From the IMG/VR virus record IMGVR_UViG_3300006931_000029, positions 93,124 through 157,123 of that record: 64,000 nucleotides of DNA, one strand, 5' to 3'. Each line of letters starts with the position of its first letter. The first letter of the stretch is position 1. The notes under the pieces were generated by a model that saw only the letters and a program-made list of their open reading frames with translations, was not told the origin of the DNA and made no database searches. The DNA is from a virus. Shown here piece by piece: positions 1 through 62,314 of this stretch. The position numbers were made by a program, and so were the translations under genes.

Positions 1-379
1 ACTGGGCATCAACCGTAATGTGACTGATCGGGCTGCGCAGGTCGACCTTACCATCAGCGGGGTGTTCCAGAAGTCCGAACGACGCCCGACGCGTCATCAA
101 TTGCTTGAGGACGGAACCTTCCGAGAGGTTCTTTTCCCAAACTTTCTTGGAATATCGGCGGCGATTGCCATTGATACAGTCGCAAACCGACAGAGTTCCT
201 GGAATACGCTTTGAGGTAAGTCCAGTCTCGGGGTTTTTCGACTCCACGATCGCTGCGCGATCAGGTTTGAAGTCGAACGTGTCTTCGAGGAGAATGCGCG
301 GCACCCTCTAAGCATGAAAACATATACTCTCCCACGCTCAGGTCAGACTCTACGCTTCACTGGTTATTGAACGGCAAAG

Positions 380-661
380 TCAGAGCTCTGGGGTAGTCGC
401 GTGCTGCCGAACCTTAGGTTTGACAGGCTTCGCAATGGTAACATCTGCCGACCCAAAGTTCCACACATGATCTAACATCTTCCCTACTTCGTACATATTC
501 GCACCGCGTTCGTCGAACCATTTGTTGGTGTCTTCCGACGTAAGCTCTTCAACTTGACCGTCGTCGAGTGCGAGGATGAAATAGTCCGAAAAAGGTTCGC
601 GTGTAATTTTTACGTGAAGAGGAGGAAGAGGCTCCTGAGGAACTGTTGGTTTCTCACTCAT
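380..661 (-). CDS. hypothetical small acidic protein
   Basis: 93-aa ORF from track; compact junction with next minus-strand gene (overlap at 658-661); contains acidic VEELTSED segment reminiscent of the small-protein family seen later in window. Confidence 0.4.
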   Translation of the reverse strand: MSEKPTVPQEPLPPLHVKITREPFSDYFILALDDGQVEELTSEDTNKWFDERGANMYEVGKMLDHVWNFGSADVTIAKPVKPKVRQHATTPEL

Positions 662-29124: not shown

Positions 29125-29140
29125 TTTTATTGTTTACAAA
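29125..29140 (+). promoter_or_regulatory. TTTTATTGTTTACAAAA promoter-like motif
   Basis: 17 nt upstream of ATG 29156. Confidence 0.45.
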
Positions 29141-29569: not shown

Positions 29570-29887
29570 GTGGACCCGAAAGACCTAGTCGAGCGCATGC
29601 TGGAGGACGATGACCGTGACCGGTACGATGACGAACCGAGAGACGGCTCTCTCGTCTATGCCACGATCTATCCAATCGGCGAAGAAGACGTTGACCTGGT
29701 GATTCGTTACCACGCGTCGAAAGCCCACCCTGACGATTCAGGCTACCGCCCAGGAGCTTACCACGTTGAAATCGAGGAGATTGTTCGAGACGACACAAAG
29801 GAAGACATCACGCGCAAGCTGACGCAGGATCAGTTCTACGAGCTGCAAGAAAAAGTCTCAGAACACTTCCACCACTACGTCCGATGA
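29570..29887 (+). CDS. small acidic protein, LVExML N-terminal-motif family
   Basis: N-term MDPKDLVERMLEDDD. Confidence 0.45.
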   Translation: MDPKDLVERMLEDDDRDRYDDEPRDGSLVYATIYPIGEEDVDLVIRYHASKAHPDDSGYRPGAYHVEIEEIVRDDTKEDITRKLTQDQFYELQEKVSEHFHHYVR

Positions 29888-30054: not shown

Positions 30055-30405
30055 ATGGACGACAAGAAGCCGGACGAACTGGTCGAGAAGCTGCTTAACG
30101 AAGACCCGGGTGACGAGAAGCTCGATCCGGTTTACGTTCAGCGCAGAGATGACGTTCGTCGTCAAGCTGCTGAGCCGTCCAGAAAGCCGAATCCACGCGA
30201 AATGGAAATCGAGCAGGGTGACGACGATGTCGATCCGGAGGAGCAATTTGAGTTGGACCTTCGCGAAGCGATTGAAGGAACAATCGAAGGTGCAAGAGCC
30301 AGAACTTATGCCGAAAATGGCGTGCTGACCCGCAACAAGGGTTTGGTGGTGGATACGTCCTATGGGACGTTCCAAGTCACGATCGTTCTGAAGAATCGCG
30401 CTTAG
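30055..30405 (+). CDS. small acidic protein, LVExML N-terminal-motif family
   Basis: N-term MDDKKPDELVEKLLNEDP; terminates with tandem TAG TAG (30403-30408). Confidence 0.45.
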   Translation: MDDKKPDELVEKLLNEDPGDEKLDPVYVQRRDDVRRQAAEPSRKPNPREMEIEQGDDDVDPEEQFELDLREAIEGTIEGARARTYAENGVLTRNKGLVVDTSYGTFQVTIVLKNRA

Positions 30406-31100: not shown

Positions 31101-32897
31101 TTAGGTCTTCTTTGCCGCGGGCACTGCAGGCGAAGGTGTCGTTTCAACGTCCGTCACCATTCCCGCCATCTGAGCGAGTTTGGACGGGTCCATCTTCAGA
31201 AGCTTCAGCAACGGCGTAACGTCAACGCCAGCCGCTTTTGCTTTGAGGAAGAATTCAGTAACCATGCCAGGGATTGCGCCAGCGAAACTGGCGACGCCGC
31301 CGCCTTTGCCGTCACCGGTGCCCATGTCAACGATGGAAACATTCTTGATCGCACCCAGCGACGTGCCGAGAGGACCGAACATTGCCGCCAACATTTTAGC
31401 GCCGGCATCGCCGCCCTTGTCGAAGAGCACAGGAAGACGATCGAGTACCATGATGAATTTGCCTTCTTCAGATAGTTGCTTCAACGCCTCGGCCAATTTC
31501 TCGGTACCTTCAGCTTCGGCGAGAAGAGCAGCGCGTTTACCGTTGGCAACAGCGAGCAATCCTTTCTCAGAACCATCGGCTTCGGCAAGAAGAGCAGCAC
31601 GCCGACCGTCAGCAGCTGCGAGTTGGTTTGCACGAACACCTTCTGCGATGGCGAGTTGGGTTGCCTTATTGCCATCGGCCTCGGCTGTCAACTTGACGCG
31701 TGTCGCTTCACCTTCAGCCGCAGCGATCGTGCGAGTCTTGGACGCGATACCTTCACCTTCCTTGACAGCAGCGTTTGCTTTACCGGTTGCCGTGATTTCC
31801 AGTTGACGCGCCGTGCGTTCAGACACGGATTGCTGGTTATCGGCCTCAATGAGGGCAGCTTTGGCTTTCGCCTCAGCTTCGACGATGATTGTCGCCTGCA
31901 GTCTCTTTTGGTTGAGACTAGCCTGCTTTTCCTGCACGGCAATACCAGCGTCAGCGGCTGCGGCGTCTCTGGCCGCTTCTTTCACCCGGAGATTTTGCTC
32001 TTGGGCTGTTTTAGCAATGGCGTTGGCCATATCGGCCTCAGCTTTTTTGCCTTCAGTTTGAACCTTAAACTCGGCAATCTGAATGTCGCGTTTCTTTTCG
32101 GCGTCAGCGACCATAGCGGCGTTCTGCGCCTTTACCTCGGCCGACTCGCGTTCAGCGTTAGACGTCTTGATGGCGGTTTCCTTCTTTGCTTCTGCCGTGG
32201 CGATTTCAGCATCACGGATGATGGCGGCGGTTTCTTTACGGCCGAGAGCCTTGATGTAGCCTTCCGCGTCTTGAACGTCTTGCACGACCAGCGTGATGAT
32301 CTGAATCCCGAGACGGCGGAACTCGTCAGACGACTCTTCAAGAACCTGCTTGTTGAACTCAGAGCGATCCCGAAGAATCTGCTCGACGCTCAACTTAGCA
32401 ATGATGCTACGAACGTGACCGCGAAGGATTTCGCTAATCGTGCTCTTGATTTCTTCGGCGTCTTTGCCGAGGAATGCTTGCACCGCATTCGATTGTTCGT
32501 CGGGATTCGGCGAAACACGGCATGTGGCAACGGCAGTGATGTTAACCGGGACGTTCTTGGCCGTCGGCACCTGTTGCTCCTTAATTTCCACCTGGAAGGC
32601 AGCTGTGCTCATGACCTCGAACCGCTCCACGATCGGCATCAAAATCTTACCACCACCGGTGATGATTTTGAATCCGCGGATACCGGTCTTCTGAACGGAC
32701 TCCTCGGTGTAGTTGTACTTGTACTTCCGGCCGTAGAAGACGCCGATGCCGTTCGGCGGAACCGTTTTGTAGCGCGATGCGGCAATGAAGCCAACGATCG
32801 CGACGCAGATAACGACGGCGATGATTACACCTGGAACGAAAAAGCCACCAAGCAAACCGGGGCTTGCTTGAGCGAGGAAGAGCATGCTAGTATTCAT
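31101..32897 (-). CDS. SPFH/band-7 flotillin-like protein
   Basis: N-terminal TM anchor, SPFH-domain-like region, long Ala/Glu/Lys-rich coiled-coil (EA repeats) typical of flotillin/YqiK. Confidence 0.65.
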   Translation of the reverse strand: MNTSMLFLAQASPGLLGGFFVPGVIIAVVICVAIVGFIAASRYKTVPPNGIGVFYGRKYKYNYTEESVQKTGIRGFKIITGGGKILMPIVERFEVMSTAAFQVEIKEQQVPTAKNVPVNITAVATCRVSPNPDEQSNAVQAFLGKDAEEIKSTISEILRGHVRSIIAKLSVEQILRDRSEFNKQVLEESSDEFRRLGIQIITLVVQDVQDAEGYIKALGRKETAAIIRDAEIATAEAKKETAIKTSNAERESAEVKAQNAAMVADAEKKRDIQIAEFKVQTEGKKAEADMANAIAKTAQEQNLRVKEAARDAAAADAGIAVQEKQASLNQKRLQATIIVEAEAKAKAALIEADNQQSVSERTARQLEITATGKANAAVKEGEGIASKTRTIAAAEGEATRVKLTAEADGNKATQLAIAEGVRANQLAAADGRRAALLAEADGSEKGLLAVANGKRAALLAEAEGTEKLAEALKQLSEEGKFIMVLDRLPVLFDKGGDAGAKMLAAMFGPLGTSLGAIKNVSIVDMGTGDGKGGGVASFAGAIPGMVTEFFLKAKAAGVDVTPLLKLLKMDPSKLAQMAGMVTDVETTPSPAVPAAKKT

Positions 32898-34576: not shown

Positions 34577-34936
34577 CTAAGTATCACTCTTCTGGTCGCT
34601 CCGAACTAGCTTGAGAAGGTGACCGTATCTTCCTGTGAATCTTTCCACCTTGAGCGGAAACGACGGCTCCTCAATCTTCGAAAATCGTGAAGCCGTCAGG
34701 CACGGTTCGTAATTTTTTGGCCCACCTTCAGGCGGGGATCGTCGACCTATTTTCTCGCCATGCGGTGCGAAAACGATTAGGTCGATGGTGCCGTCCGACC
34801 AGGTTTCTTTAACCTTTCCGAACGTTGGGCTATGATCGTCCGTGTGATCTTTGACCCAGTCTCCGGTTTTGAACGGAAACTTATTTTTCTGTGTTTGCTT
34901 TAGGGGCAAGTTTTTCCTTAAGAGCCAGTTCAACAA
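34577..34936 (-). CDS. hypothetical protein
   Basis: 119-aa ORF; 56-nt overlap with next gene so start uncertain. Confidence 0.35.
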   Translation of the reverse strand: MLNWLLRKNLPLKQTQKNKFPFKTGDWVKDHTDDHSPTFGKVKETWSDGTIDLIVFAPHGEKIGRRSPPEGGPKNYEPCLTASRFSKIEEPSFPLKVERFTGRYGHLLKLVRSDQKSDT

Positions 34937-46013: not shown

Positions 46014-48248
46014 TTAAGTAGCGAACAGCCAGAGAAAACGAGGGTCGTTGCCGGCCACGCCCTGGAAACCTTGATTTCCCTGGAATCCTTGAAAGCCTTG
46101 CGTTCCCGTTGCGCCTTGAACTCCTTGAGGACCTTGGAAACCCTGATTTCCTTGCGATCCTTGGGAACCTTGAGAACCCTGCGATCCCGCAGGTCCAGCG
46201 AACGCGAATGTGAAACAGACCTCGTCATTCAGCGAGAACGTTGTACCGGAATCGTCCTGGTACGTGACAGCGAATTTGCGATAGCCGGTCGCCGACACCA
46301 CGCTTCCTGTGAAGATGAATGTTGCAAACGTGTTGACGTCTGCCTTCTTGTAGACCTTTATCGTGCCGCGGTTGGTAGACGATCCGAAGTTGTCCAACGA
46401 ATCCAACCATCCTGTGACGTCAACCAACGACTCGTTGAGCAAGTCAACATAAAGGAACGTAACAGAAGCATAGGTCGCGTTGTTGAACTTCAGGAAGCCA
46501 TCGCCAGGATCAGAGTCGGCTGTGTTGGTGTTGAAGAAGAAAATCTGCGTGTCGCCGCCGGCACTAGAATCACCGGACGAACCTTGGAATCCTTGCGAGC
46601 CTTGAGAACCCGTCGAGCCCTGGTTGCCTATAGACCCTTGGAATCCTTGCGAGCCTTGAGCTCCTTGATTTCCTTGAGCGCCCGTGCTTCCCGCCGCTCC
46701 TTGCGCACCAGTCAATCCCTGGAAACCCTGGCGGCCCTGGAAACCTTGTGCGCCTTGTGCGCCGTCGTTGCCGGGCGCTCCGGTCAATCCTTGAACACCT
46801 TGGTTTCCTTGGTTGCCAGTGTATGTCCACGTGAACGCAATGTCATTACCAGCAGTGAACGTCGTGCCTGAAGAATGCTGGAACGTGACGGCAATCTTTC
46901 GATAACCCGTCGCCGTTGTGACGCTTCCAGTGACGATGAACGTAATGAAGACGTTTGCATCTGCGCTCTTGAACAACTTGAGCACGCCGCGGTTCGTCGA
47001 CGAGCCAAAGTCGTCGATAGCATCCAACCACGTTGTGATGTCGACGCCACCTTTGTTGAACGTGCTCGCAAAAATCTGGGTGACAGAAGCGTAGGTCGCG
47101 TTGTTGAAACGGACCTTGCCGCTACCCGGGTCTGCGTCGCTCGTTCCGGTGTCCCATGTGTAGATTTGTGTGTCGCCGCCAGAACCTTCGCTGCCCTGCG
47201 CACCTGTAGAACCCTGATTTCCTTGGAAACCCTGAGAGCCCGTAGTTCCAGTTGAGCCTTGGAATCCCTGATTACCCTGCGAACCTTGGAATCCTTGGAA
47301 TCCCTGCGCGCCATCGGGAGGACCTTGGAATCCTTGGAATCCCTGACTGCCTTGTGATCCTTGTGCTCCCGCAGTTCCGGCTGAGCCTTGACTACCTTGC
47401 GATCCAGTCGACCCGGTCGCACCTTGAAAACCTTGAAAGCCTTGCGCTCCAGTTGATCCCGCCGCTCCTTGAAGTCCTTGGAAACCTTGGCGACCTTGGA
47501 ATCCTTGCGAGCCTTGAGCACCCGCTGCGCCTTGCGAACCCTGAAATCCCTGCGCGCCATCAGGAGGACCTTGGAATCCTTGAAAACCCTGTGCACCTTG
47601 AGAGCCAGTTGAACCTTGAAATCCCTGCGAACCCGTCGTTCCTGTCACGCCTTGGAAACCTTGACGACCTTGGAATCCCTGCGCACCTTGCGATCCCGTG
47701 GTTCCAGTTGAGCCTTGGAAACCTTGGTTGCCCTGCGCTCCGCTGATGCCATAAGTGAAGATCGCGACTCCCGTGAAAACAGGAGACGGCGCTGCTGAGA
47801 AGACCGTGCAAGTTAGCGTGACGGTCGAATTGATGTTGTCGAACGAAACGTTAGTGATGCTGTAGACAACGTGTGTCGAAGAGTTCGTCTCGAGATAGAT
47901 GACAAAGTGAGACGGTGCCAATCCCGAAAACCAACTCGAAGCGTTCTGACCCGCAAGGTTCGTTTGATTTGCGACAATGGCTGTTGCGAGTTGAGGGCTC
48001 GCATTGTTCAATCGGAAAGTTCCAGTCGTTGGATTTCCAGTCGTCAGCGACGAATAGGTGTAGCGCTGCGACGGCCCGCCTGCTGTTCCTGTCGGCCCTT
48101 GAAAACCCTGAAATCCTTGAAAACCCTGAGCGCCCTGATTCGCGTCCGCGTAATCTTTGTTGACTGCGTCTTTGCCATCAACCGGTGCACTCAAACCAGC
48201 CAACCGCTGGTTTTCGAGCGTATTGCCTCTTTGAATGATCGGAACCAT
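46014..48248 (-). CDS. collagen-like repeat fibre protein with three interspersed about 110-aa globular domains
   Basis: multiple GxQ/GxxG blocks; repeated domain ...FNNATYASVT...GSSTNRG...TGSV..ATGYRK(I/F)AVT... Confidence 0.6.
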   Translation of the reverse strand: MVPIIQRGNTLENQRLAGLSAPVDGKDAVNKDYADANQGAQGFQGFQGFQGPTGTAGGPSQRYTYSSLTTGNPTTGTFRLNNASPQLATAIVANQTNLAGQNASSWFSGLAPSHFVIYLETNSSTHVVYSITNVSFDNINSTVTLTCTVFSAAPSPVFTGVAIFTYGISGAQGNQGFQGSTGTTGSQGAQGFQGRQGFQGVTGTTGSQGFQGSTGSQGAQGFQGFQGPPDGAQGFQGSQGAAGAQGSQGFQGRQGFQGLQGAAGSTGAQGFQGFQGATGSTGSQGSQGSAGTAGAQGSQGSQGFQGFQGPPDGAQGFQGFQGSQGNQGFQGSTGTTGSQGFQGNQGSTGAQGSEGSGGDTQIYTWDTGTSDADPGSGKVRFNNATYASVTQIFASTFNKGGVDITTWLDAIDDFGSSTNRGVLKLFKSADANVFITFIVTGSVTTATGYRKIAVTFQHSSGTTFTAGNDIAFTWTYTGNQGNQGVQGLTGAPGNDGAQGAQGFQGRQGFQGLTGAQGAAGSTGAQGNQGAQGSQGFQGSIGNQGSTGSQGSQGFQGSSGDSSAGGDTQIFFFNTNTADSDPGDGFLKFNNATYASVTFLYVDLLNESLVDVTGWLDSLDNFGSSTNRGTIKVYKKADVNTFATFIFTGSVVSATGYRKFAVTYQDDSGTTFSLNDEVCFTFAFAGPAGSQGSQGSQGSQGNQGFQGPQGVQGATGTQGFQGFQGNQGFQGVAGNDPRFLWLFAT
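47170..47760. repeat. collagen-like GxQ coding tandem repeat
   Basis: 9-nt periodic ccttg(a/g)aa(a/t)cc units over about 600 nt. Confidence 0.55.
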
Positions 48249-51222: not shown

Positions 51223-51601
51223 GCAACCACCCGATCAAGAAGAACGGCTGAACGCTCCGCCACCTTACCGGCCGAGCATCGATAGGATTTTCCTTGACAA
51301 ACTAAGCGAGTCCGATCGCTACCTGGTCACGAAACTGGATTCCGTGGACCAGCGTATTGAGTGGTTAATCGTGGTCGCTCTCTCGAGCCACAACCGAGGC
51401 ATCGACCTAGCGTCTTCTGTCAGAAAGTTAGAGGAACGTGTCGCCAGATTGGAACAGGCGAACGACCCAGAAGACAAAAGTATGCTCAAGTGGATTCGAG
51501 AGAATGTCATGGCTCCTGCTAAGATGGTCGGTTGGTTGATCGCCACCGGGATTGGAGCCCTGATCGTTGTTCTTCTAGAAAAATACTTTGGCAGCAAGTG
51601 A
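51221..51601 (+). CDS. small membrane protein
   Basis: 126-aa ORF ending with hydrophobic helix GWLIATGIGALIVVLL. Confidence 0.4.
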   Translation: MQPPDQEERLNAPPPYRPSIDRIFLDKLSESDRYLVTKLDSVDQRIEWLIVVALSSHNRGIDLASSVRKLEERVARLEQANDPEDKSMLKWIRENVMAPAKMVGWLIATGIGALIVVLLEKYFGSK

Positions 51602-52026
51602 ATTCACTCACCGACTACGTCAATCGGCTTCTCCGTCCTTCCAGAATCCTACTGGTTGAGGACGACGAAGCAGTTTGCGCTGTCATAGAGTCGCTAGCCA
51701 AGAAGTTCAACTGCGAGATGATGACCGTCCATACGGCGAAGGACGCGCTGAGAGAATCTCTCGAAACCAAGTACGATCTCGTCCTGCTCGATTACCAGTT
51801 GCCGGACGGCAACGGTGTTGAAGTGTTTAAGACAATCCGGGCCAAGTCATGTGACGTGCCGGTTTGTATCGTGACAGGCTTTCTATCCGAACACCTGATC
51901 GATCAAGTGAAGGATATTGGATTCGCAGTCTTCGTGCAGAAGCCGAAGGACTTGACGATGAAGAATCTGATCAACATCTTCATGACGTTCGGCATCAAGC
52001 CGAACCCGGCTGCAGAAGCCGGATGA
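51598..52026 (+). CDS. stand-alone response-regulator receiver (REC/CheY-like) domain protein
   Basis: ILLVEDDEAVCAVI...LVLLDYQLPDGNGVEVFKTIR...PVCIVTGF; start uncertain (GTG 51598 overlapping previous TGA, or TTG 51532). Confidence 0.45.
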   Translation: MNSLTDYVNRLLRPSRILLVEDDEAVCAVIESLAKKFNCEMMTVHTAKDALRESLETKYDLVLLDYQLPDGNGVEVFKTIRAKSCDVPVCIVTGFLSEHLIDQVKDIGFAVFVQKPKDLTMKNLINIFMTFGIKPNPAAEAG

Positions 52027-52764: not shown

Positions 52765-53280
52765 CTACGACCTCTCAGCCGCTTCCGCAGAACCAGGCGT
52801 TTGTTCAAGAGAACGCTGTTCAGAATCGCCAGATTTCAACGTCAGGTTTGTTCCCCTGAGAGCAGCAATGCCGGACTCCCGGGCCAAATCTTGCAGCGTA
52901 AACAGGTAATTCTTCGCCAATTCGTAAGGGTCTGCGCTCATGAATCCGTACATCGGCGAGTACGACCGCCGATCCGAGTACAGCTCAAGGGAGAAGGCGA
53001 GACCGTTGTGGTAGCTGCCGAGCGAGTCAGATTGTCCACGAGCAAACACCCTGACGTTGCGAGCGTCGTAAACGAACGACTCGATTCTTGCGTCGTTGTC
53101 CCTGATGATAACGCCGTCTCCTCTCACGAAGATGGCAATTCCTTTGCCCATTTCACCGCAGGAAAAACCCATCTTGCGAAGGATTTTCAGCGTAACCCAC
53201 CAAACACTGGACGTGTCATCGGCAGGTTCCTTTGGTGCCAGTGCAAGCAATGAATTTCTGTTTACGAGTTCCAATTCCAT
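52765..53280 (-). CDS. hypothetical protein
   Basis: 171-aa ORF. Confidence 0.4.
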   Translation of the reverse strand: MELELVNRNSLLALAPKEPADDTSSVWWVTLKILRKMGFSCGEMGKGIAIFVRGDGVIIRDNDARIESFVYDARNVRVFARGQSDSLGSYHNGLAFSLELYSDRRSYSPMYGFMSADPYELAKNYLFTLQDLARESGIAALRGTNLTLKSGDSEQRSLEQTPGSAEAAERS

Positions 53281-53296: not shown

Positions 53297-53701
53297 ATGA
53301 AGCCTGCGAATCTAGTGGATCAAATGCTGGAGACCGACAGTGAGCCTGCGCGTGAGCCAACTCCTAGTTTGACGGTTCCAGACGCTGGCATGTCTCGGTA
53401 TCCGAAGGATGAAGAGGCCACTCGCAACGCTGTCGAGAAAGTCGGGGATGGACAACAGCCGGATGAATTTTTCGTGTCGATCGGCGACGAGTTCTACGAG
53501 GACGAACCTGAACAATCCGGCGAGAGCTACAGCATCGGCCAGTTTGCCGATCCGAAGGAAGCCGAGAAGATGTTCAACAACGTCGAGCTGAACGGCGCAG
53601 AAGGACCGCGCTGGGTTTCAGTCGAGAATCGTCTCAAAGGCCTGATCAAGCAACGCTACCTGAAGAAGGTGGTGAGCTATCAGGAGGAGACACGGGACTA
53701 G
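53297..53701 (+). CDS. small acidic protein, LVExML N-terminal-motif family
   Basis: AAGGTGA SD then ATG 53297; MKPANLVDQMLETDSEP; terminates with tandem TAG TAG (53699-53704). Confidence 0.45.
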   Translation: MKPANLVDQMLETDSEPAREPTPSLTVPDAGMSRYPKDEEATRNAVEKVGDGQQPDEFFVSIGDEFYEDEPEQSGESYSIGQFADPKEAEKMFNNVELNGAEGPRWVSVENRLKGLIKQRYLKKVVSYQEETRD

Positions 53702-53966
53702 TAGGAGCAGTGCCGGACGAGAACTGAGTCGGGTGTTCCTGATCGGCGCCGTCGTAGTTGGCGCTGACCAATTCGCGCAGCGAGAAGGCAACGAACGGGC
53801 CTTTGAACTGACGAAGGTCTTCTCTCGATTGAACTAGTTCGGCTTGCTTGGCAGTCAAGACGAGAATCCGTTTACCAGATCGAAACTCTTCGACAAACGC
53901 AGCGGCACGCTCAGGTTTGAACGCCGTTGCGCCTGACTCACCGAGTAACTGCTTGATGAGCGTCAT
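53646..53966 (-). CDS. hypothetical protein
   Basis: 106-aa ORF, convergent overlap with previous gene. Confidence 0.35.
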   Translation of the reverse strand: MTLIKQLLGESGATAFKPERAAAFVEEFRSGKRILVLTAKQAELVQSREDLRQFKGPFVAFSLRELVSANYDGADQEHPTQFSSGTAPTSPVSPPDSSPPSSGSVA

Positions 53967-54250
53967 AGCACGATCCAGTCTACTCCTAATCTTTCCATCG
54001 TGTCTAAGAGTTTGGAGGCTTCGGCTGAGAATTCAGCGACGTCGACTTCAACCATCTGCAGCGTGCCGACTTCGATGGTAGCGCCATCGTCGACGTTGAG
54101 ATAATCTCTCAAGCCGCGCGACAGACCGACATCTTGAGCTTTGATTGCTTTGTAGATTTTCGGGCCGTTGCTGCCTGGATTTCCAACTTGAGCGGCATCG
54201 ACAGGCGCTTCGCTCAACATCTGATCCACGATTGTCTTGGCGTTGTTCAT
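53963..54250 (-). CDS. small acidic protein, LVExML family
   Basis: MNNAKTIVDQMLSEAP. Confidence 0.45.
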   Translation of the reverse strand: MNNAKTIVDQMLSEAPVDAAQVGNPGSNGPKIYKAIKAQDVGLSRGLRDYLNVDDGATIEVGTLQMVEVDVAEFSAEASKLLDTMERLGVDWIVL

Positions 54251-54531
54251 GAGAATCCGGTTACGTCTGTGATGACCTTGGCAAATTCAGGACGCGCGCA
54301 AACTTTTGCCGCGGCATTTTTCAATGCCTGAGCGAGGTTGAATCGGTCGCTGGTCTCAGCGTTGGGCGTCATCACGATGTCGATACCTTCGAGTTCAGTA
54401 CCGTCAAGGCTGATGCTAACAGTCATGATGCGACCGCGTCGTGAAAGCTGGCGCGAGCGTCGGCCCTTATTGGCATCGCCCTCGGGTCCTTCTTCGTTGA
54501 GAAGCTTGTTAACTGTGTCAGAAGGTTTCAT
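54247..54531 (-). CDS. small acidic protein, LVExML family
   Basis: internal ATG gives MKPSDTVNKLLNEEGP and ATGA coupling to upstream gene. Confidence 0.4.
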   Translation of the reverse strand: MKPSDTVNKLLNEEGPEGDANKGRRSRQLSRRGRIMTVSISLDGTELEGIDIVMTPNAETSDRFNLAQALKNAAAKVCARPEFAKVITDVTGFS

Positions 54532-55046
54532 GGGTGTCCCGGCCTTGGCGGCCAAACTGGTTGAGCTTTCTGTTGTTGCAGCGGAGTTCTGCCTTCTCCG
54601 TATCCTAGCATGAAGCAAGCGAGCCGAGCGTACCGTCTTGCTTCTTCCGGGTTCTTGACTAAGTCGTTGGCTTTATCGATGCAGAGTGTCCAACACTCCT
54701 CCTTCATGCGAGCGTCGTACTCGGGCGAGTCTGGGTCTAAGTCTTCTGGTGCTACGTCGCCGAGGTATTGTTCGACCTCGTCCTTGATTCTTTTGACGAT
54801 TGGATTTTCTCCACGCTCGGTGATCGAATCTTCGCTCAGCAGTTGCTCAACCACGCCGCTTGGCGTGAGGTCAGGAAGTACTTTGAAGAAGTCGAAATCA
54901 GAGCCGTCTTTTCCGTCAGAAACAGGTAGCTCAACGATTTCGCCGGGCTTCACGTCGCGAGGATGGCATTCACGCTCGCCTTCCCTAGTCTTGACCACAA
55001 CGTGGTCATAACGGTCAAGAAGGTCTTTGTGCCGGATCATCCGCAT
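54528..55046 (-). CDS. hypothetical acidic protein
   Basis: 172-aa ORF; internal VVEQLLSED segment. Confidence 0.4.
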   Translation of the reverse strand: MRMIRHKDLLDRYDHVVVKTREGERECHPRDVKPGEIVELPVSDGKDGSDFDFFKVLPDLTPSGVVEQLLSEDSITERGENPIVKRIKDEVEQYLGDVAPEDLDPDSPEYDARMKEECWTLCIDKANDLVKNPEEARRYARLACFMLGYGEGRTPLQQQKAQPVWPPRPGHP

Positions 55047-55075
55047 AGTTTACCTACAGACTAACAGAACACGGC

Positions 55076-55087
55076 ATTTTGTAAACA
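55076..55087 (-). promoter_or_regulatory. TGTTTACAAAAT promoter-like motif in divergent region
   Basis: 32 nt upstream of minus start 55046; 13 nt before plus ATG 55102. Confidence 0.45.
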
Positions 55088-55101
55088 GATTCTTCCCAGC
55101 A

Positions 55102-55569
55102 ATGGAAAATGTAGCCCAGTCCGAGGAGTGGAAACGACTAGGGCTATCACTAGAAGCGTTTCAGGGAACCAATGTCCATGATTCGGCCACGTGGACCATC
55201 AAGGTGCGGCGATCTGGAGTTTCCAATGGTCTGATTCAGTTTACTATCCGGACGCGTCTGGACTATGGTCAACTAGACCCGTATGATGCTTTCCTAGGCT
55301 TGTGCGAGACGTTCGCCGGTCTTCCAGGAGATTATTACAGTTGGATCAGTCTCGCCGGCCTGCCTGACACCGAGTCGTACCGCTACCGCTTTCAGGAACT
55401 CCAACGCCAAAAACAAGGAACGATCGATGTCCTCGGCCCAGATGTTATTTCGAGAATTGCCAATTTACGTCCCACCGGGGAACAGAAGCGTGTTCTACCG
55501 GCCGGTCCAGCAAGCTTACGGGCGGTCAACCTACATCCAAATCCCGGAATGCCGATGCAAACCCCATGA
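55102..55569 (+). CDS. hypothetical protein
   Basis: ATG at 55102 (MENVAQSEEW) within ORF 55027..55569. Confidence 0.4.
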   Translation: MENVAQSEEWKRLGLSLEAFQGTNVHDSATWTIKVRRSGVSNGLIQFTIRTRLDYGQLDPYDAFLGLCETFAGLPGDYYSWISLAGLPDTESYRYRFQELQRQKQGTIDVLGPDVISRIANLRPTGEQKRVLPAGPASLRAVNLHPNPGMPMQTP

Positions 55570-56066
55570 GCGACGAGGTCCCGAGGGAGGAGTCTGTGCC
55601 TGCACCGGAGCCATCCCCAGAATCGACCCCAAAACCGGCTGGAAAACTTAGGGCGGTCAATGGCGGAGTTGGAATGCCCGGAGCTGTGCTGCTCGATCTT
55701 TTCGGCAGCTACGTTTGGGACGCCTTCGGTGACCTTCCATACCACGTCGGGTCATCGCTAGAAATTGAGAAAGGAACCACTGAGTGGGCTGGAGCGCGTC
55801 TGAACAAAAACCAATGGAGAGACGTTGATGTTCGATTGATCATGAGCGACGAAGAGTGGGAGAAGCAAGGATTCGGCGACCCAAGGGACACGCATCGAAA
55901 CGCCAAGTGGGTTGCTATCACGCTGGCATGGACGGCTTTTGGCCGCCAACTTACGGGATTGCCCATTGATTTTCAGATTCAACAACAGACCGAAGCGAAT
56001 AAGGAAGAAGGCCTCCGGTCGGCAATCGGCCTCGTTCCTCATCGTTTCAAAAAATACACACAATGA
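55566..56066 (+). CDS. hypothetical protein
   Basis: 166-aa ORF, ATGA coupling. Confidence 0.45.
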   Translation: MSDEVPREESVPAPEPSPESTPKPAGKLRAVNGGVGMPGAVLLDLFGSYVWDAFGDLPYHVGSSLEIEKGTTEWAGARLNKNQWRDVDVRLIMSDEEWEKQGFGDPRDTHRNAKWVAITLAWTAFGRQLTGLPIDFQIQQQTEANKEEGLRSAIGLVPHRFKKYTQ

Positions 56067-56413
56067 ACAAAGTCCTTACCTCGAAAGACATCAAGTCAAC
56101 GTCTCCCATTCTGTCGTGCAGCGCAGCGGTCTTCAAGCTCGGCGGCCGAGATTTTTCAGCCCGGTCGTCGGCGTTCGAATCGATGTATGAGGTCGAGAAG
56201 TTCGTGAACGAACACGCCGGTTTTCTGGTGATCTTCGACCAGCCGAATCTCTTCGTGCCTGACGTTCCAACAAGCGATCGTGACAAGGTTGTCCTCCGCT
56301 ATGTGATCTTGCCGAACTTCCACGACTTGATCAGCAGAATGTATCAAGCCACGATAGACGTCGGACTTGCCGGCGATCTGAGAAAAGACCTCGACACTTA
56401 TTTTGGAAAGTGA
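56063..56413 (+). CDS. hypothetical protein
   Basis: 116-aa ORF, coupled. Confidence 0.45.
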   Translation: MNKVLTSKDIKSTSPILSCSAAVFKLGGRDFSARSSAFESMYEVEKFVNEHAGFLVIFDQPNLFVPDVPTSDRDKVVLRYVILPNFHDLISRMYQATIDVGLAGDLRKDLDTYFGK

Positions 56414-56700
56414 GTCCGTATCAGAAAGCTATTGCCGCCGTCGTTCTCAACACGGCATTTTCCGTTGAGGAGCAGGACTACTATTGCGGCCAGCGAAATA
56501 GCGGCTGCAAGTGTCCGGTCGCTTTAGCCATCCGCCGGACTTTGGACACAAGTTCAACCGTGTCAGTCTGTGCTGCCACAATCCGAATCGACTCCGTTTG
56601 GTTTGTGACACCGAAGGAGGTCGACGCCTACATTAAGGCGTACGACAGACGAGAACCGAATTGTTTTCTGCTCGATTTCAGAATCAAAGAAGTGGCTTAA
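56410..56700 (+). CDS. hypothetical protein
   Basis: 96-aa ORF, coupled. Confidence 0.4.
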   Translation: MSPYQKAIAAVVLNTAFSVEEQDYYCGQRNSGCKCPVALAIRRTLDTSSTVSVCAATIRIDSVWFVTPKEVDAYIKAYDRREPNCFLLDFRIKEVA

Positions 56701-57392
56701 GCGTTCGCCCAGTCGAGGACGATCTTGGCCGCGGTCAAGAGACTCTCAGGTGGAATCTTCAAAGGATCGGCGTCGGCAAATTGGCCGAACGTGTCTTGCA
56801 GCTCGTCAGGAAGATTGATGGTGCCGCCGGTTTCATCGGTCATGCTGGCTCCCCAGAAACCGTCTGCCGTGCCGATGTCGAGAGTACCTAGCTTGTTCGG
56901 GCAGCTCAGGTAGCCGGGATATTCGTAGGAACACTTGACGCCATTCTCATTAAAGAATCTCTCACACTCGAGACCGAGCTGTTGAAGCGCGTTGTTCTCG
57001 TCTTCACTGAGAAGGGTTTCGACCACGTCGGATGGCGCGATAGTTTCACCTGTTGCGCGGTCGATGTCGAGTGTCCGCATGTTGCCGGACAACTTCAGCG
57101 TCTTGCGTTCAGGAGCTGGAGCCGATAGTAAATCCCAAATCTCGTTGGCATCGGTATTGATTGAACCGTCGACTTCATCCCGAGAAGCGTCAAGATGCTG
57201 TAGCAGACCTTTCATCAACCGTTGGCGCTCGGATTGAACTCCACGATCAAAATTCAGATGAGACAAGATGGCGTTCGCAAGGCGCCCAATCTCGACTTCC
57301 ATTCCACTTTCTTGATCGCGAGTGCGGCCACCGAGTTCGTTGTAGTCACGAATCTCCTTGTTGACCCACATCCTGTCGATCTTGCCGGCCAT
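56697..57392 (-). CDS. hypothetical acidic protein
   Basis: 231-aa ORF; internal DVVETLLSEDEN segment. Confidence 0.45.
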   Translation of the reverse strand: MAGKIDRMWVNKEIRDYNELGGRTRDQESGMEVEIGRLANAILSHLNFDRGVQSERQRLMKGLLQHLDASRDEVDGSINTDANEIWDLLSAPAPERKTLKLSGNMRTLDIDRATGETIAPSDVVETLLSEDENNALQQLGLECERFFNENGVKCSYEYPGYLSCPNKLGTLDIGTADGFWGASMTDETGGTINLPDELQDTFGQFADADPLKIPPESLLTAAKIVLDWANA

Positions 57393-57394
57393 CG

Positions 57395-57709
57395 TTAAGG
57401 AAGTTTGGCGATGAAGTCGGCAACGTCCCTGACAGGGATGAAATCGTTGCCGTACTCAAAGTCGGGCGCAACGGCCTTCACGAACTCAAACGTTCCGTCA
57501 GGATTGGCCATGACGTGGCAACTGATCTCTTCGCCGGTTTTGAGTTTGATTCCGATCTCGGCGACTTGCTCCGGTCCCATTACGTCGATGTGGGTAATGT
57601 CGCCAACACCAGTTCTGGCAAACGCGCCACGGAGTTCAGCAGTGAACGCCTCGATAGCGTCAGCTTCGCTCAGCATGTTTTCAACCATCTGCAGGGGCGT
57701 GATTTTCAT
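57395..57709 (-). CDS. small acidic protein, LVExML family
   Basis: MKITPLQMVENMLSEADA. Confidence 0.45.
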   Translation of the reverse strand: MKITPLQMVENMLSEADAIEAFTAELRGAFARTGVGDITHIDVMGPEQVAEIGIKLKTGEEISCHVMANPDGTFEFVKAVAPDFEYGNDFIPVRDVADFIAKLP

Positions 57710-58071
57710 TCTTCGATGAGACGGCTAACAACTTGCCTTGGAGTGGATTCTCGGCGTAAAGGACGGCTAGGGCGACTGAAGTTCGTGAAAAATTTTCCGG
57801 CACTCCGGTCGGCTTTTGCTTGTTGGATCGCCGACTGGATTTCCTCAACTCCAGCCGTTTCTTTATCCACAAAGAAGGTCAAGCTGTCAACGAAGTGCCG
57901 ACCGGCAGTCGAGTCCAGATATTCCTTCGCCTTCAGCGGATCGCCACCGAGGACGTCGATCAGGTAGTTGTAGATGCCGAGCACCTGAGCGCGGGAGACG
58001 TTGCCCCAATTGGCAAGCGTGCCGTAAAATCCCCAGTCGGTGTTGATGTCGTCGGCGGTGAACTGTGCCAT
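57706..58071 (-). CDS. hypothetical protein
   Basis: 121-aa ORF. Confidence 0.45.
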   Translation of the reverse strand: MAQFTADDINTDWGFYGTLANWGNVSRAQVLGIYNYLIDVLGGDPLKAKEYLDSTAGRHFVDSLTFFVDKETAGVEEIQSAIQQAKADRSAGKFFTNFSRPSRPLRRESTPRQVVSRLIEE

Positions 58072-58130: not shown

Positions 58131-58145
58131 TTTGTAAACAAAAAT
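58131..58145 (-). promoter_or_regulatory. ATTTTTGTTTACAAA promoter-like motif (minus orientation)
   Basis: about 60 nt upstream of minus start 58071. Confidence 0.4.
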
Positions 58146-58684: not shown

Positions 58685-59056
58685 TTAGGTATGAACTAAG
58701 GGTTCGAGGTTGAATGACTTCAAGGCAGCAAGAGCTTCGTCCACCTTCTCGTTAGGAACAACGACCACGATAGTCTTGGTGGTTTGGGTTTTCTTCCACT
58801 CGATGAAGACCGTCTCGGTGTTGCGATCGCCATTGTACGGATCGGGACCTTTTCCCTGCCACGCGACGTAACCGCCGAAGTCGTTTTCGATGACGAATTC
58901 TCGGTCCGCTTTTCCTGGTTTCACGAACCACGATCCGTCTTCCTTTGCTCCCCACAATTCTGCCCAAAGATCGTCGTTGTAGTCCTCGAAATAAAAACTG
59001 TCTCCGAGCTCATTGATGAAACGACAAAATTCGATGGCTGTTGTGGGTGTGGACAT
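58685..59056 (-). CDS. hypothetical protein
   Basis: 123-aa ORF. Confidence 0.45.
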   Translation of the reverse strand: MSTPTTAIEFCRFINELGDSFYFEDYNDDLWAELWGAKEDGSWFVKPGKADREFVIENDFGGYVAWQGKGPDPYNGDRNTETVFIEWKKTQTTKTIVVVVPNEKVDEALAALKSFNLEPLVHT

Positions 59057-60287: not shown

Positions 60288-60920
60288 TCACGGTGAACGC
60301 GCAAGCATGTACCGCCCGTCTGGCTTTAACTCAAGCACAAAGTACCCGCAGTTTGGCGGATTCTTCTCGGCTTCAAATTGTTCGACAGTATAGTGCAGCC
60401 ACCGCATCACGATGATTCGGCTCGTGTACCCGTGCGTCACCAGAATCAAGTTATCCGGATGGTCTGGTCGAGCAAAATCTCTGTGCAACGTCTCGAGAAA
60501 AGTGGATATACGATCGAACACGTCTGCGCCTGATTCTCCATCGGGAATCCGGTACCAAAAACGGGAAAAGGCATCGCGCTCTTTGTCGATGCGAATGGCT
60601 TCTTCAGGATCGCGCAAGTGTCCCCATTCCTGCTCTCGGATGCGTGGGTCTTCCTTCACCCACGCAGGAGGTTTTATGCCAAGCCGAGAGCGAAGCATGT
60701 GTTCGGCCGTTTCCCTGGTTCGTTTGAATGGAGAAACCCACATCGCAAACGGCTCGACACCAATCACGTCTGCGAACAACCTGTCACCGGCCCAGAATGC
60801 CTGTTCCTTTCCTTTGTCAGTCAGAGGGATCAGGTGGTCCTGAGTTTTGCCTCTCGTCTCTTTGTCGGCGTTGGACATCGACTCACCGTGGCGGATGATG
60901 ACAATCCTTTTTGGCTTCAT
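60288..60920 (-). CDS. histidine phosphatase superfamily (phosphoglycerate-mutase-like) protein
   Basis: IVIIRHGESMSN (RHG catalytic motif) near N-terminus; second His region ILVTHGYT. Confidence 0.55.
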   Translation of the reverse strand: MKPKRIVIIRHGESMSNADKETRGKTQDHLIPLTDKGKEQAFWAGDRLFADVIGVEPFAMWVSPFKRTRETAEHMLRSRLGIKPPAWVKEDPRIREQEWGHLRDPEEAIRIDKERDAFSRFWYRIPDGESGADVFDRISTFLETLHRDFARPDHPDNLILVTHGYTSRIIVMRWLHYTVEQFEAEKNPPNCGYFVLELKPDGRYMLARSP

Positions 60921-60947: not shown

Positions 60948-61385
60948 GTGCAGAAAATCATCGGCTACATCACATGGGATTCCACGCCAACAGTTGGAAC
61001 TGCCCACGGCGTCCACCGGCTTTCGTTTATCGACGTCCTCACGGGCACAAGCATGTCGTTTCCTCCTGAGGAAATCATCGTTCAACAGTTCATCATCGCC
61101 GGCAAGGTCGCTTCGCGGTTGATTGAATCATTGCCGATGTTTACACCACGCAAACCGAAGCCGGACGGGTCGCCGTGGAAAGCCAACATCAAAGACGAAC
61201 CGGACATCACGATCCTCGGCACGCTTGCGAGATGGCCGATCCTCTCCGACCCGGCACCGGAAATGGAAGACAAACTCCTCTTGATTGCCCCGAAGCCGGG
61301 TGGAGTCGACAAAGTCTTTGAGGTAACAATCACCGGCCAATTTGCCGATGCTATCCTCAACCCTCAGGAAGGTCCACGTTCGTAG
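60948..61385 (+). CDS. hypothetical protein
   Basis: 145-aa ORF. Confidence 0.4.
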   Translation: MQKIIGYITWDSTPTVGTAHGVHRLSFIDVLTGTSMSFPPEEIIVQQFIIAGKVASRLIESLPMFTPRKPKPDGSPWKANIKDEPDITILGTLARWPILSDPAPEMEDKLLLIAPKPGGVDKVFEVTITGQFADAILNPQEGPRS

Positions 61386-62314
61386 TCGGTCAAGTCTCTC
61401 CACTCGCGCATGCTGCTGATAGACGAGAGGTCGACTTCTGAGTAACGCCGTTCGATTGCGGCATCAGAGCCGACGTTGATGAAGACAGCGCCAGGTGCCG
61501 CTTGATCAACGAACTGAGTCCACGCTTTGGCGTCATAGGTTGCCGTGGTAGGGAAGGACGGAAGCTCGTGCGATTTGACTGCACGAAGGAATGGAACCGT
61601 AGCGCTGATCAACTCTGCTCGGCCGATCTCGCCATCATGCATGTTACGAGCAACGGCAATTCCACGGGCTCTTGCGTTCGGCCAACCGATCTGAAGACCC
61701 CGCGTCATCGTGCCGGTGCTGACAGCGCACCAAAACTCTGGCGGTTCGCCATGAACTTCAGCGATGTCGGCGGCAAATTTCACGATGCCGGCCGTCACCT
61801 CAGGCACGCCTTTCAGACCGAACGGCAAGTACTTTGCGCCGTGCTTAGCGGCCCACTTTCTGGCATAGCTGTTTAGCATCGGCATCGCTGCAGTCCGGAT
61901 GAACCGAAGGTCGGCGCCATAAGCCTTGCAAACCGCCTGGTGCTTCGAGACTTCGCCGCTAGCAGGGACGAAGAAGACGGTCTTCTTCCCGTACATCTGC
62001 GCAAGGACGCAGATGGCTTCTGCCGCGTGGCCGACTCGAGGAGCGCAGTAAACCAGCGTGTCTTCCGGCGTGGTGGCAATCAGCTTCTCGGCCGCGTAGG
62101 CTTTGAAACCTGCCGGGGCTTTGTCACACCTCACAACGTTCAACGGACGATCATCAGTGCCAAACCGTTCAAGCAGAGATGCCGCGTCAGGCATCCGACT
62201 TTTGAAGTTCGTGCCATAAAGTTTTAGGTAGAAGTCACGCGCACCTTGAGCGTTCAGGGGAGTTGGAATATCTCGGTTGCTGGGATCGGCTGTGATCGTG
62301 AATTGAGGCTTCAT
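61364..62314 (-). CDS. PLP-dependent fold-type II enzyme-like (ACC deaminase/D-cysteine desulfhydrase-like)
   Basis: size about 316 aa and Gly-rich GxGxxG-like and Lys-containing N-terminal segment; weak, by overall resemblance only. Confidence 0.35.
   Translation of the reverse strand: MKPQFTITADPSNRDIPTPLNAQGARDFYLKLYGTNFKSRMPDAASLLERFGTDDRPLNVVRCDKAPAGFKAYAAEKLIATTPEDTLVYCAPRVGHAAEAICVLAQMYGKKTVFFVPASGEVSKHQAVCKAYGADLRFIRTAAMPMLNSYARKWAAKHGAKYLPFGLKGVPEVTAGIVKFAADIAEVHGEPPEFWCAVSTGTMTRGLQIGWPNARARGIAVARNMHDGEIGRAELISATVPFLRAVKSHELPSFPTTATYDAKAWTQFVDQAAPGAVFINVGSDAAIERRYSEVDLSSISSMREWRDLTDYERGPS

Follow-up and report, generated by a model that had tools for sequence, protein, structure and literature searches.

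What does a short peptide do when it is shared by small phage proteins that are otherwise unrelated? The window (the whole stretch of DNA that was analysed, 64 kb) lies within the ~225-kb genome of an uncultivated soil jumbo phage, of which ~84 kb was covered here together with regions of 4–20 kb from six other phage contigs. At least 11 proteins encoded in the window carried the peptide, hereafter the tag, which the first-pass annotation had described as an N-terminal motif of acidic proteins. The carriers identified, with their tags on the same strand, were as follows.

29570..29887, + strand, gene A, 105 aa, acidic, GTG start; N-terminal tag MDPKDLVERMLEDDD at 29573–29614 (19.2 bits, relatives-only HMM)
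30055..30405, + strand, gene B, 116 aa, acidic, TAG stop with a second stop immediately after; N-terminal tag KPDELVEKLLNEDP at 30067–30108 (19.4 bits, relatives-only HMM)
39544..39801, + strand, gene of an 85-aa acidic protein; C-terminal copy TPEALVDRLLDS-stop at 39763–39795 (10.9 bits), without Glu
53297..53701, + strand, gene C, 134 aa, tag in a flexible N-terminal extension; MKPANLVDQMLETDSE at 53300–53341 (pattern and HMM match)
53646..53966, − strand, gene of a 106-aa protein; variant N-terminal tag MTLIKQLLGES at 53937–53960
53963..54250, − strand, gene D, 95 aa; N-terminal tag NAKTIVDQMLSEAP at 54203–54244 (pattern and HMM match)
54247..54531, − strand, gene E, 94 aa; N-terminal tag MKPSDTVNKLLNEEG at 54487–54528 (pattern and HMM match)
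54528..55046, − strand, gene G, 172 aa, in the order N-domain, tag, C-domain; internal tag TPSGVVEQLLSEDS at 54825–54866, about aa 62–75 (pattern match)
56697..57392, − strand, gene H, 231 aa, helical N-domain, linker with the tag and alpha/beta C-domain; internal tag APSDVVETLLSEDE at 56997–57038, aa 120–131 (pattern match)
57395..57709, − strand, gene F, 104 aa; N-terminal tag TPLQMVENMLSEAD at 57659–57700 (pattern match)
57706..58071, − strand, gene of a 121-aa protein, its stop overlapping the start of F; C-terminal copy TPRQVVSRLIEE-stop at 57709–57744 (8.1 bits)

The six N-terminal and two internal copies reported previously were all found where they had been placed. Searching the six-frame translation of the window with the pattern [LIVMT]V[EDN].[ML]L[ESN][EDT] returned exactly 8 matches, each inside a gene-like ORF and none in other frames. 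An HMM trained solely on copies from the related phages, with the window sequence left out, matched 10 times in the window at a cut-off of ≥8 bits, versus 0.1 times per replicate in residue-shuffled ORFs (2 matches ≥8 bits in 20 replicates; top shuffled score, 10.2 bits). A chance origin of the tag copies is excluded. The top scores were those of A and B, both from outside the region that supplied the model. Two weaker copies proposed earlier, at the N-terminus of the 39544 gene product and within 380–661, did not score with this HMM. An independent gene caller, run on the parent contig, gave identical starts for C, D, E, and F. The fetched regions of the six related contigs contained 3–10 tag copies each; four were in L030, for which a blastn comparison with the window gave no match at E ≤ 1e-5.

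The tag is a helical segment of ~12–14 residues with a Pro cap and the consensus (M)[KT]-P-x-[DN]-[LV]-V-[EN]-[RK]-L-L-(x)-E-[DE], to which Pro at position −3, present in 35 of 40 copies, belongs. The B homolog of L018 has the variant form MSTVKKLVDQMLGEAE, and orthologs of D and E have the MTLIKQLLGES variant in place of the canonical tag. Outside the tag, no significant similarity was found among the eight proteins A–H, in agreement with their earlier description as otherwise dissimilar, and seven of the eight are acidic as described (pI 4.3–4.9), the exception being E (pI 7.9). The same residues are encoded by different synonymous codons from copy to copy, which indicates selection on the peptide and not on the DNA. 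Thus, the motif exists and is selected as a peptide.

The placement of the 10 copies is not random: six begin at one of residues 1–10 (binomial P about 5e-6), and two finish at the stop codon (P about 5e-3). The internal copies are at domain junctions, inside disordered linkers. The N-terminal placement was therefore only part of the pattern, and the tag works at any position in a protein. The internal and C-terminal copies point to a putative position-independent docking peptide and speak against the two suggested signals that would be read at the N-terminus, a degron and a secretion tag. In AlphaFold2 models the tag was in low-confidence linkers (mostly pLDDT <50) that separate folded domains or precede them, such as residues 1–29 of C and residues 95–112 and 117–129 of H, which cover most of its tag; the models thus predict an exposed tag in disordered segments. 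The tag is invariant in orthologs with 41–64% identity. In C orthologs, the N-terminal extension varies except for the tag, in which L6, V7, and L11 never change and the register alternates between MLE-T and MLSE-E. Similarly, P120, D122, V123, V124, E125, and L128 are invariant in H orthologs (41–86% identity), among whose most conserved segments the tag ranks. H also has a second, degenerate copy at aa 80–93.

Protein modules have been fused, split, and swapped precisely at the tag. The 121-aa protein of 57706–58071 and F are the upstream and downstream halves of what in L007, L008, and L011 is a single protein with one internal tag; the window version is split at the tag, with a copy in each half. 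In L008, L010, and L011, the C-domain of G is a separate protein tagged at its N-terminus, and in L010 the N-domain of G is linked via the tag to another C-domain. In L031, the G and H genes are each split at the tag, and both halves have kept a copy. The internal relics SMKPKD and QMKPEQ mark places where a cassette of MKP, tag, and cargo was fused behind another domain.

A prohead protease, which the first-pass annotation proposed to look for outside the window, is encoded by a gene that runs off its edge.

1..304, − strand, 5′ end of the prohead protease gene, which starts at base 304 (Peptidase_S77, the T4 gp21 family; 59.7 bits, E 3.6e-16)

In its 547-aa product, the Peptidase_S77 domain is fused to a scaffold-like coiled-coil region with a high content of Ala, Lys, and Pro. 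The protease aligns to T4 gp21 (PDB 5JBL), with the catalytic His (in EHP) and Ser (in SSRG) conserved, and the next gene, outside the window, encodes a Gp23-family major capsid protein. This protease is a candidate for the enzyme that cuts the tag. In T4, gp21 cleaves after L/I-x-E, and an Asp at P1 blocks processing (PMC9026906). In 38 of 40 tags, the first or second residue past the Leu pair is a Glu (LLE, 14; LLxE, 24) that creates an [L/M]-x-E site. Asp was the sole acidic residue at this spot in one copy only, a C-terminal one, while at the following position Asp is commoner than Glu. The phi-x-E site is also kept in C orthologs despite their register switch from MLE-T to MLSE-E. Moreover, Glu was absent from 4 of 6 C-terminal copies versus ~1 of 50 N-terminal and internal ones (Fisher P = 2e-4, from counts that are not independent), which we read as reflecting that nothing there needs release. 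However, ordinary acidic docking motifs also typically have an acidic run after an amphipathic helix, which makes the Glu rule suggestive, not decisive. The N-terminus of the protease itself, MPRILLE-D, resembles the second half of the tag; T4 gp21 has LIE at residue 9 (PMC9026906).

Given these results, a shared targeting or processing signal fits the data, though not in its N-terminal-only form, and the tag may well combine a docking helix with a cleavage site and direct cargo to the prohead, much as the capsid targeting sequence of T4 does; we hold this reading with moderate confidence. Its first part, in which P-x-[DN] caps a short amphipathic helix (phi-V-x-x-L-L) with hydrophobic residues at i, i+1, i+4, and i+5, would be the docking helix, and the Glu after the Leu pair would be a gp21-type cleavage site. 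The helix would bind the prohead core, most likely the scaffold-like region fused to the S77 protease, and so co-assemble varied small, mostly acidic cargo into the head. The protease would then cut after the Glu and release the cargo from the core, and the cargo would later be ejected together with the DNA. For two-domain proteins, a single internal tag would bring both domains in and then separate them. Core binding, cleavage, presence in virions, and ejection are all inferred here.

The internal proteins of T-even phages are likewise diverse, with only a 10-residue capsid targeting sequence ending in I-x-E in common (PMC3012670, PMC9026906). In the T4 sequence, residues 4 and 7 serve targeting and processing requires residues 8 and 10, and T4 Alt has a C-terminal propeptide too (PMC9026906). 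In both systems, a short amphipathic peptide that ends in the gp21 rule (hydrophobic residue, any residue, Glu) is the sole common feature of unrelated, fast-evolving small proteins, targeting and processing residues are separable, and a protease of the gp21 family occurs together with a capsid protein of the gp23 family. The differences are that packaging is a prediction here, and that the tag is longer (~12–14 residues, with a Pro cap), is present at N-termini, internal junctions, and C-termini, and is where genes are fused and split. Carriers are also more numerous, at least 11 in 64 kb here and 3–10 per fetched region (4–20 kb) of the relatives versus 3–4 in T4. Three further observations count against capsid targeting: the tag has no detectable similarity to MKTYQEFIAE of T4; the carriers are acidic, unlike the basic internal proteins of T4 (PMC9026906, PMC6071114); and the full tag was found on neither the capsid protein nor the protease, with nothing >5 bits in L013.

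The giant phages phiKZ, 201phi2-1, and SPN3US, whose gp21-related protease removes propeptides of 20 to >250 residues after Glu (PMC9026906, PMC10052503), are alike in being jumbo phages with many head-internal proteins and packaged paralog families. The ejection proteins of SPN3US have N-terminal propeptides of 20–254 residues (PMC10052503), lengths that match the internal tag copies. Their sites, however, are a minimal S/A/G-x-E without a conserved upstream helix, unlike the L-x-E consensus behind a strongly conserved helix found here, and no phiKZ-type features were seen within the ~84 kb covered. In P1, the N-terminal 30 residues of DarB suffice to send a reporter into the capsid, and the Dar proteins have no consensus in common (PMC9024508); different from our tag, DarB is a single carrier with no tie to gp21-type cleavage. 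The tag resembles an enlarged, movable form of the signal by which T4 loads proteins into its head and which it then cuts off.

The expression signals of the carriers bear on this reading. A sigma-70-like element, TTTT-TGTTTACA, 16–18 nt, TAnnnT, was present in 16 copies (4.0 expected), including the following.

29131–29137, + strand, promoter-like element ahead of the operon containing A and B
53259–53265, + strand, promoter-like element ahead of C
55081–55087, − strand, promoter-like element ahead of G, E, D, and the 53646 gene
58134..58140, − strand, promoter-like element ahead of the operon of the 57706 gene, F, and H

The TGTTTACA element was also found 5′ of non-structural genes, such as those of an AAA ATPase and a phosphoesterase, and ahead of none of the capsid, protease, and tail-fiber genes. 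The element suggests early or middle expression of the tag operons, and its presence before non-structural genes and absence before the capsid, protease, and tail-fiber genes count against capsid targeting; in T4, internal proteins are synthesized early as well as late (PMC6071114).

These carrier operons, with an element shared with non-structural genes and with small, acidic products, are also compatible with an uncleaved docking motif for a hub other than the capsid, either a host machine (RNA polymerase, a chaperone, or a protease adaptor) or a conserved protein encoded by the phage at this locus, by which many early takeover or anti-defense proteins would be gathered in one place. This is the main alternative, and we regard it as possible, if tentative. 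Sliding-clamp-binding peptides, the SSB C-terminal tail, and the FtsZ C-terminal peptide are bacterial hub docking motifs, by which many clients share one partner; such motifs are short, disordered, portable, functional at any position, and quickly gained or lost. The tag has the same hallmarks of position independence, disordered location, and evolutionary plasticity, but its sequence matches none of the three. The cluster also contains highly conserved tagless proteins, for example a 123-aa protein (58685–59056) that is 58–93% identical across relatives and the block at 55090–56700, either of which could be the partner. Uncleaved docking, however, leaves unexplained why N-terminal and internal copies strictly prefer Glu to Asp just past the Leu pair, the register shift that keeps phi-x-E, and the loss of Glu from C-terminal copies; the three hub motifs named above are not known to have a strict Glu requirement.

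It is improbable that the tag has no shared partner and is either what is left of the common ancestor of a fast-diverging paralog family or a generic linker helix at domain boundaries. The genes are clustered, with tandem arrays that suggest duplication, and the junction positions are compatible with a linker. Nevertheless, the C-terminal domains differ in length, C and H differ in predicted secondary structure, the tag is highly conserved in H orthologs and invariant in the variable extension of C, and a linker left at a free N- or C-terminus by fission would have no reason to be kept.

Also improbable is a degron by which a phage or host AAA+ machine, for example the AAA ATPase of 34881–36743, would time the removal of early proteins. 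The phage encodes an SPFH protein besides this ATPase, whose PHROG match carries the annotation ATP-dependent protease, and the N-terminal copies resemble terminal degrons. Internal copies between two conserved folded domains, however, fit a one-terminus signal poorly, as do the copies kept by both halves after gene fission and the like conservation of the tag at C- and N-termini, and no link was found between this ATPase and the tag.

Finally, although modules are exchanged exactly at the tag, as happens with the mobile regulatory cassettes of T4-type phages, the notion that a nucleic-acid element (a recombination cassette, translational element, or promoter-proximal repeat) is what is conserved and the peptide a by-product is close to refuted, as codons for the same residues vary freely between copies, the four copies of L030 are in DNA without a blastn match to the window, 8 of 8 pattern matches are in one frame of gene-like ORFs with 0 in others, and the internal and C-terminal copies are far from translation starts.

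The search pattern [LIVMT]V[EDN].[ML]L[ESN][EDT] was run on the six-frame translation of the window and matched eight times, always in frame with a plausible gene and never in the other frames. Six matches were N-terminal and two were internal, at the places where the first-pass annotation, made from the sequence alone, had located them. The starts of the N-terminal carriers C, D, E and F were identical in the gene caller of the parent contig. To avoid circularity, an HMM of this tag was trained on 28 copies from related phages only and then run over the window, where it produced 10 matches of at least 8 bits, compared with 0.1 per replicate in residue-shuffled ORFs. The claimed motif was thus enriched over shuffled controls. 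The 10 matches consisted of the eight pattern copies and two copies at the extreme C-termini of proteins. Two weaker copies that had also been suggested, at the N-terminus of the product of 39544-39801 and in 380-661, did not score with the tag HMM.

Tag copies in the window (coordinates, strand, description)
29570-29887 (+), carrier A, N-terminal copy
30055-30405 (+), carrier B, N-terminal copy
53297-53701 (+), carrier C, N-terminal copy
53963-54250 (-), carrier D, N-terminal copy
54247-54531 (-), carrier E, N-terminal copy
57395-57709 (-), carrier F, N-terminal copy
54528-55046 (-), carrier G, internal copy
56697-57392 (-), carrier H, internal copy
39544-39801 (+), C-terminal copy, protein ending in TPEALVDRLLDS at the stop codon
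57706-58071 (-), C-terminal copy, protein ending in TPRQVVSRLIEE at the stop codon
53646-53966 (-), shorter variant tag, phi-[VI]-K-x-L-L-G-E, at the protein start

The consensus of 40 copies was [KT]-P-[AS]-[DE]-[LV]-V-[EN]-[RK]-L-L-[ES]-E-[DE], of which MKPSDLVERLLSEED is an example. The orthologues of D and E possessed the shorter variant phi-[VI]-K-x-L-L-G-E instead of the canonical tag. Among the window copies, 6 of 10 started within the first ten residues (P about 5e-6), so that the placement is non-random, and 2 of 10 ended at the stop codon (P about 5e-3). The six N-terminal copies had their Glu at residues 12-17. Of the other four copies, two are internal and two C-terminal, so that the original description of the tag as N-terminal is incorrect. 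The same tag residues were encoded by different synonymous codons among copies, which indicates that the conserved object is the peptide.

Outside the tag, the eight canonical carriers had no significant similarity to one another in all-against-all BLASTP, and no Pfam or PHROG family was shared among them. No Pfam or PHROGs match was found for these carriers, the two weaker candidates, their neighbours or ten carriers from related phages, except for one DUF5661 cargo (L011 4570-4779, a carrier starting with MRPNDLVNHLLEEEE, 48.4 bits), which was the sole cargo with a family match. Seven of the eight carriers were acidic. In the AlphaFold models of H and C, most of the tag was in low-confidence segments, largely with pLDDT < 50. 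The low-confidence stretches 95-112 and 117-129 of H lay between two folded domains, and those of C (1-6 and 8-29) lay ahead of the fold. A Sec/Tat or lipoprotein signal peptide was rejected, given that the tag contains no more than four hydrophobic residues, has acidic flanks and lacks a Cys or A-x-A site.

The window is part of a jumbo phage without close cultured relatives. It encodes a family A DNA polymerase, a DnaB-like helicase, a UvsX-like recombinase, an AAA ATPase, an SPFH protein and collagen-like tail fibres, and the same proteins were found on soil and rhizosphere metagenome contigs of up to 224,954 bp. The portion of the genome covered here was the window plus 10 kb past each end, about 84 kb of ~225 kb. 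No isolated phage matched the region at the DNA level, and the polymerase, capsid and protease proteins had only distant relatives (23–37% identity), none of them cultured with a virion proteome. Neither H nor a 123-aa neighbour (58685-59056) retrieved relatives from IMG/VR, and the neighbour retrieved none from the JGI metagenome contigs. The relatives were found via protein clusters and back-translated tag patterns; 15 of the 16 back-translated pattern matches in IMG/VR were by chance. In the six further contigs of related phages that were fetched, a marker protein was 58–82% identical where measured. All fetched regions contained tag copies.

Tag copies in the fetched contig regions of related phages
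L006/L007, 3-4
L008, 7
L010, 10
L011, 7
L018, 3
L030, 4
L031, 9

Among the H orthologues (41–86% identity), P-x-D-V-V-E-x-x-L was invariant, and the C orthologues (55–64% identity) retained L6, V7 and L11. The tag is real and portable, is under selection at the peptide level and is confined to this lineage of phages.

Comparisons with the related phages also showed that the tag is often found where protein modules are joined or separated. The product of 57706-58071 and carrier F are a single protein with one internal tag in L006, L007, L008 and L011. In the window this protein is split at the tag, with one copy ending the upstream half and another starting the downstream half. In L010, the N-terminal part is a separate protein with a copy at its end, and the C-terminal part follows a different N-domain, after SMKPKDAVNKLLEDDE. 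Similarly, G consists of an N-domain, the tag and a C-domain. This C-domain is found by itself, with a tag at its N-terminus, in L008, L010 and L011, and in L010 the tag connects the N-domain of G to a different C-domain. The G gene is divided in L031 into one whose product ends with TPGGVVEHLLS at the stop codon and a next gene starting with MKPKDLVEHLLSEAP. The N-domain of H is alone in L031, ending with TPSQAVENLLNDDAS at the stop codon, and is followed in L030 by QMKPEQLVEQLLSEQA and then a different C-domain. Given these fusions, splits and swaps at the tag, with copies in the separated parts, the tag acts as an autonomous unit needed by every polypeptide. It has the traits of a docking motif: it is short, lies in disordered regions, is found at N-terminal, internal and C-terminal positions, and modules are exchanged at it.

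An [L/M]-x-E site directly following the helix was identified in 38 of the 40 copies, as LLxE in 24 and LLE in 14, and position P3 was Leu, Met or Ile in 38 of 40. Asp was the sole acidic residue at the Glu spot in only one copy, the C-terminal LLDS, and was commoner than Glu one position further on. Moreover, the C orthologues alternated between MLE-T and MLSE-E or LLGE-E, so that the site was retained through register shifts. Glu was absent from 4 of 6 C-terminal copies (LLDS, LLAYD, LLNDDAS and LLS, each ending at the stop codon), compared with ~1 of 50 other copies (P = 2e-4, from counts that are not independent). This split, with the helix everywhere and Glu only where release would be needed, is what a bipartite signal predicts.

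The first-pass annotation had proposed looking for a prohead protease gene outside the window. Such a gene was found, of the Peptidase_S77 family of T4 gp21; it extends past the window start and is followed by a capsid gene.

Prohead protease gene and nearby genes at and beyond the window start (coordinates, strand, description)
1-304 (-), starting at base 304, running off the window and continuing at 10358-12001 of L013, the sequence beyond the window start, prohead protease gene, 547-aa product
380-661 (-), just upstream of the protease gene, 93-aa acidic protein
658-1359 (-), just upstream of the protease gene, 233-aa Pro/Ser/Ala-rich protein containing NLVASVIQEDS
14694-15089 of L013, ~4 kb past the window start, 131-aa protein starting with MSIVRKILGEGY, a variant tag

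Residues 33-187 of the protease matched Peptidase_S77 (Pfam, 59.7 bits compared with a cut-off of 27, E 3.6e-16), and the domain was 33–37% identical to gp21 of KVP40-like phages. In an alignment to T4 gp21 (PDB 5JBL), the catalytic residues, the His of EHP and the Ser of SSRG, were conserved. The remaining ~350 residues were scaffold-like, being coiled-coil-like and Ala/Lys/Pro-rich with DEAKKPA repeats and numerous L-x-E sites; the sequence suggests a fusion of protease and scaffold. By comparison, T4 gp21 is a much shorter protein, and its crystallised chain has 231 residues. The gene after the protease encodes a Gp23-family major capsid protein (Pfam Gp23, 110.9 bits). The gene of the 131-aa protein is ~1.2 kb downstream of this capsid gene, with three small genes between. 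The products of 658-1359 and 380-661 had no family match; their genes sit where T4 has its core-protein genes 67 and 68.

T-even internal proteins are a highly diverse set with only the targeting sequence in common (PMC3012670), and the carriers identified here likewise have only the signal in common. In IPIII, the capsid targeting sequence (CTS) comprises residues 1 to 10; targeting requires residues 4 and 7, and processing requires residues 8 and 10. An Asp at position 10 prevents processing and leaves targeting intact (PMC9026906). T4 gp21 cleaves after L/I-x-E (PMC9026906). Both a gp21-family protease with its catalytic residues and a gp23-type capsid protein are encoded in this genome, and the tag ends in the gp21 consensus L/I-x-E in 38 of 40 copies, the Met at P3 of the MLE copies being a small departure. 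The S/A/G-x-E sites of phiKZ and SPN3US, which have no further determinants, are unlike the tag with its Leu, Met or Ile at P3 and its conserved helix before the site. Direct comparison of the consensus with the T4 CTS MKTYQEFIAE, whose 10 residues are too few for any search tool, revealed no sequence homology; the two share only the general pattern of an MK start, alternating hydrophobic and acidic residues and a final phi-x-E. The T4 CTS is a short N-terminal sequence of ~10 residues; of the window copies of the tag, six are N-terminal and four lie elsewhere. Propeptides of T4 Alt and of giant phages show that other positions are used in systems of this type (PMC9026906, PMC10052503), including a C-terminal propeptide that is also removed from Alt (PMC9026906).

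We consider the chances about even that the tag combines a docking helix with a cleavage site at the Glu and serves to bring a diverse set of cargo proteins into the prohead of this phage, whose head would be of the T4 type. The helix would dock, the Glu site would be cut and the varied cargo would end up in the prohead; the tag would then represent a new form of the CTS, larger than that of T4 and not tied to one position. The initial suggestion of a capsid-targeting or prohead-protease signal is thus partly supported, by the matching protease in the genome, with packaging and cleavage predicted from sequence features.

The main alternative, which is possible though rather unlikely, is that a docking helix of the same type targets another hub. 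Several points speak against the capsid reading. T4 internal proteins are basic, unlike the acidic carriers found here, and none of the head proteins seen in the ~84 kb had the full tag. In addition, a promoter-like element is found upstream of the motif operons. It consists of TTTT-TGTTTACA, then 16-18 nt and TAnnnT, and resembles in sequence a sigma-70 promoter with an UP element. The element was found 16 times in the window, compared with 4.0 expected (12 of the 16 sites are 7524, 16523, 29131, 31036, 36799, 38891, 40367, 42828, 53259, 55081, 58134 and 59917). It was mostly before non-structural operons, including that of the AAA ATPase, and not before the capsid, protease and tail-fibre genes, which suggests early or middle expression. 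T4 internal proteins, however, are synthesised in large amounts at both early and late times (PMC6071114), and such timing is therefore not decisive against prohead loading. The T4 late promoter TATAAATA was absent from the window, a ATTTAGTC-like element upstream of some genes was not enriched, and a generic sigma-70 and terminator scan was uninformative. In a wider form of the alternative, again possible though rather unlikely, the tag would be a general recruitment code rather than a head-packaging signal, bringing a dozen or more unrelated effector domains to one hub, either some machine of the host or an assembly made by the phage. MKP-tag-cargo cassettes could then be freely fused, split and exchanged between phages; this would be the bacterial-virus counterpart of effector recruitment by short linear motifs in eukaryotic viruses. 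Degron, relic or linker and DNA-level readings are poorly supported, and a nucleotide-level mobile cassette was rejected because the synonymous codons differ and L030 shares the peptide with no blastn match to the window.

If the tag targets the capsid, it would be a second example of the T4 CTS principle, from an unrelated uncultivated soil jumbo phage. Beyond T4, it would act from either end or the middle, mark fusion and split points and serve a dozen or more cargo per genome, and the probable ejected proteins of such phages could be listed from sequence alone. The tagged cargo would likely be anti-defence or takeover factors, and the tag could be a portable handle for loading foreign proteins into large capsids. 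If its partner is other than the head, the tag would point to a hub where many phage effectors converge.

The window also contains a predicted amber-suppressor tRNA (anticodon CUA, 39458-39533, +) directly upstream of 39544-39801. TAG was the stop codon in only 5 of 71 genes. In B (TAG at 30403-30405) and C (TAG at 53699-53701), a second stop codon follows immediately, which, together with the suppressor tRNA, looks like protection against read-through. A tRNA-Glu(UUC) at 40690-40785 (+) was predicted to be unusually long, at 96 nt, and may contain an intron or insertion. Moreover, several accessory genes unusual for a phage were identified.

Accessory genes unusual for a phage (coordinates, strand, description)
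3086-3769 (-), 2OG-Fe(II) oxygenase
31101-32897 (-), SPFH/Band 7 protein
34881-36743 (-), AAA ATPase with a long N-terminal part without assignment
about 51598-52026 (+), stand-alone receiver domain (Response_reg)
60288-60920 (-), histidine phosphatase

The 316-aa product of 61364-62314 (-) matched a PHROG annotated as threonine dehydratase (E 9.6e-55), and the gene at this position in L008 and L010 matched Peptidase_M50, so that the annotations conflict. Two large collagen-repeat tail-fibre-like proteins are encoded at 23212-25113 (-) and 46014-48248 (-), and a GC-rich block at 42-46 kb contains three Gly-rich paralogous genes.
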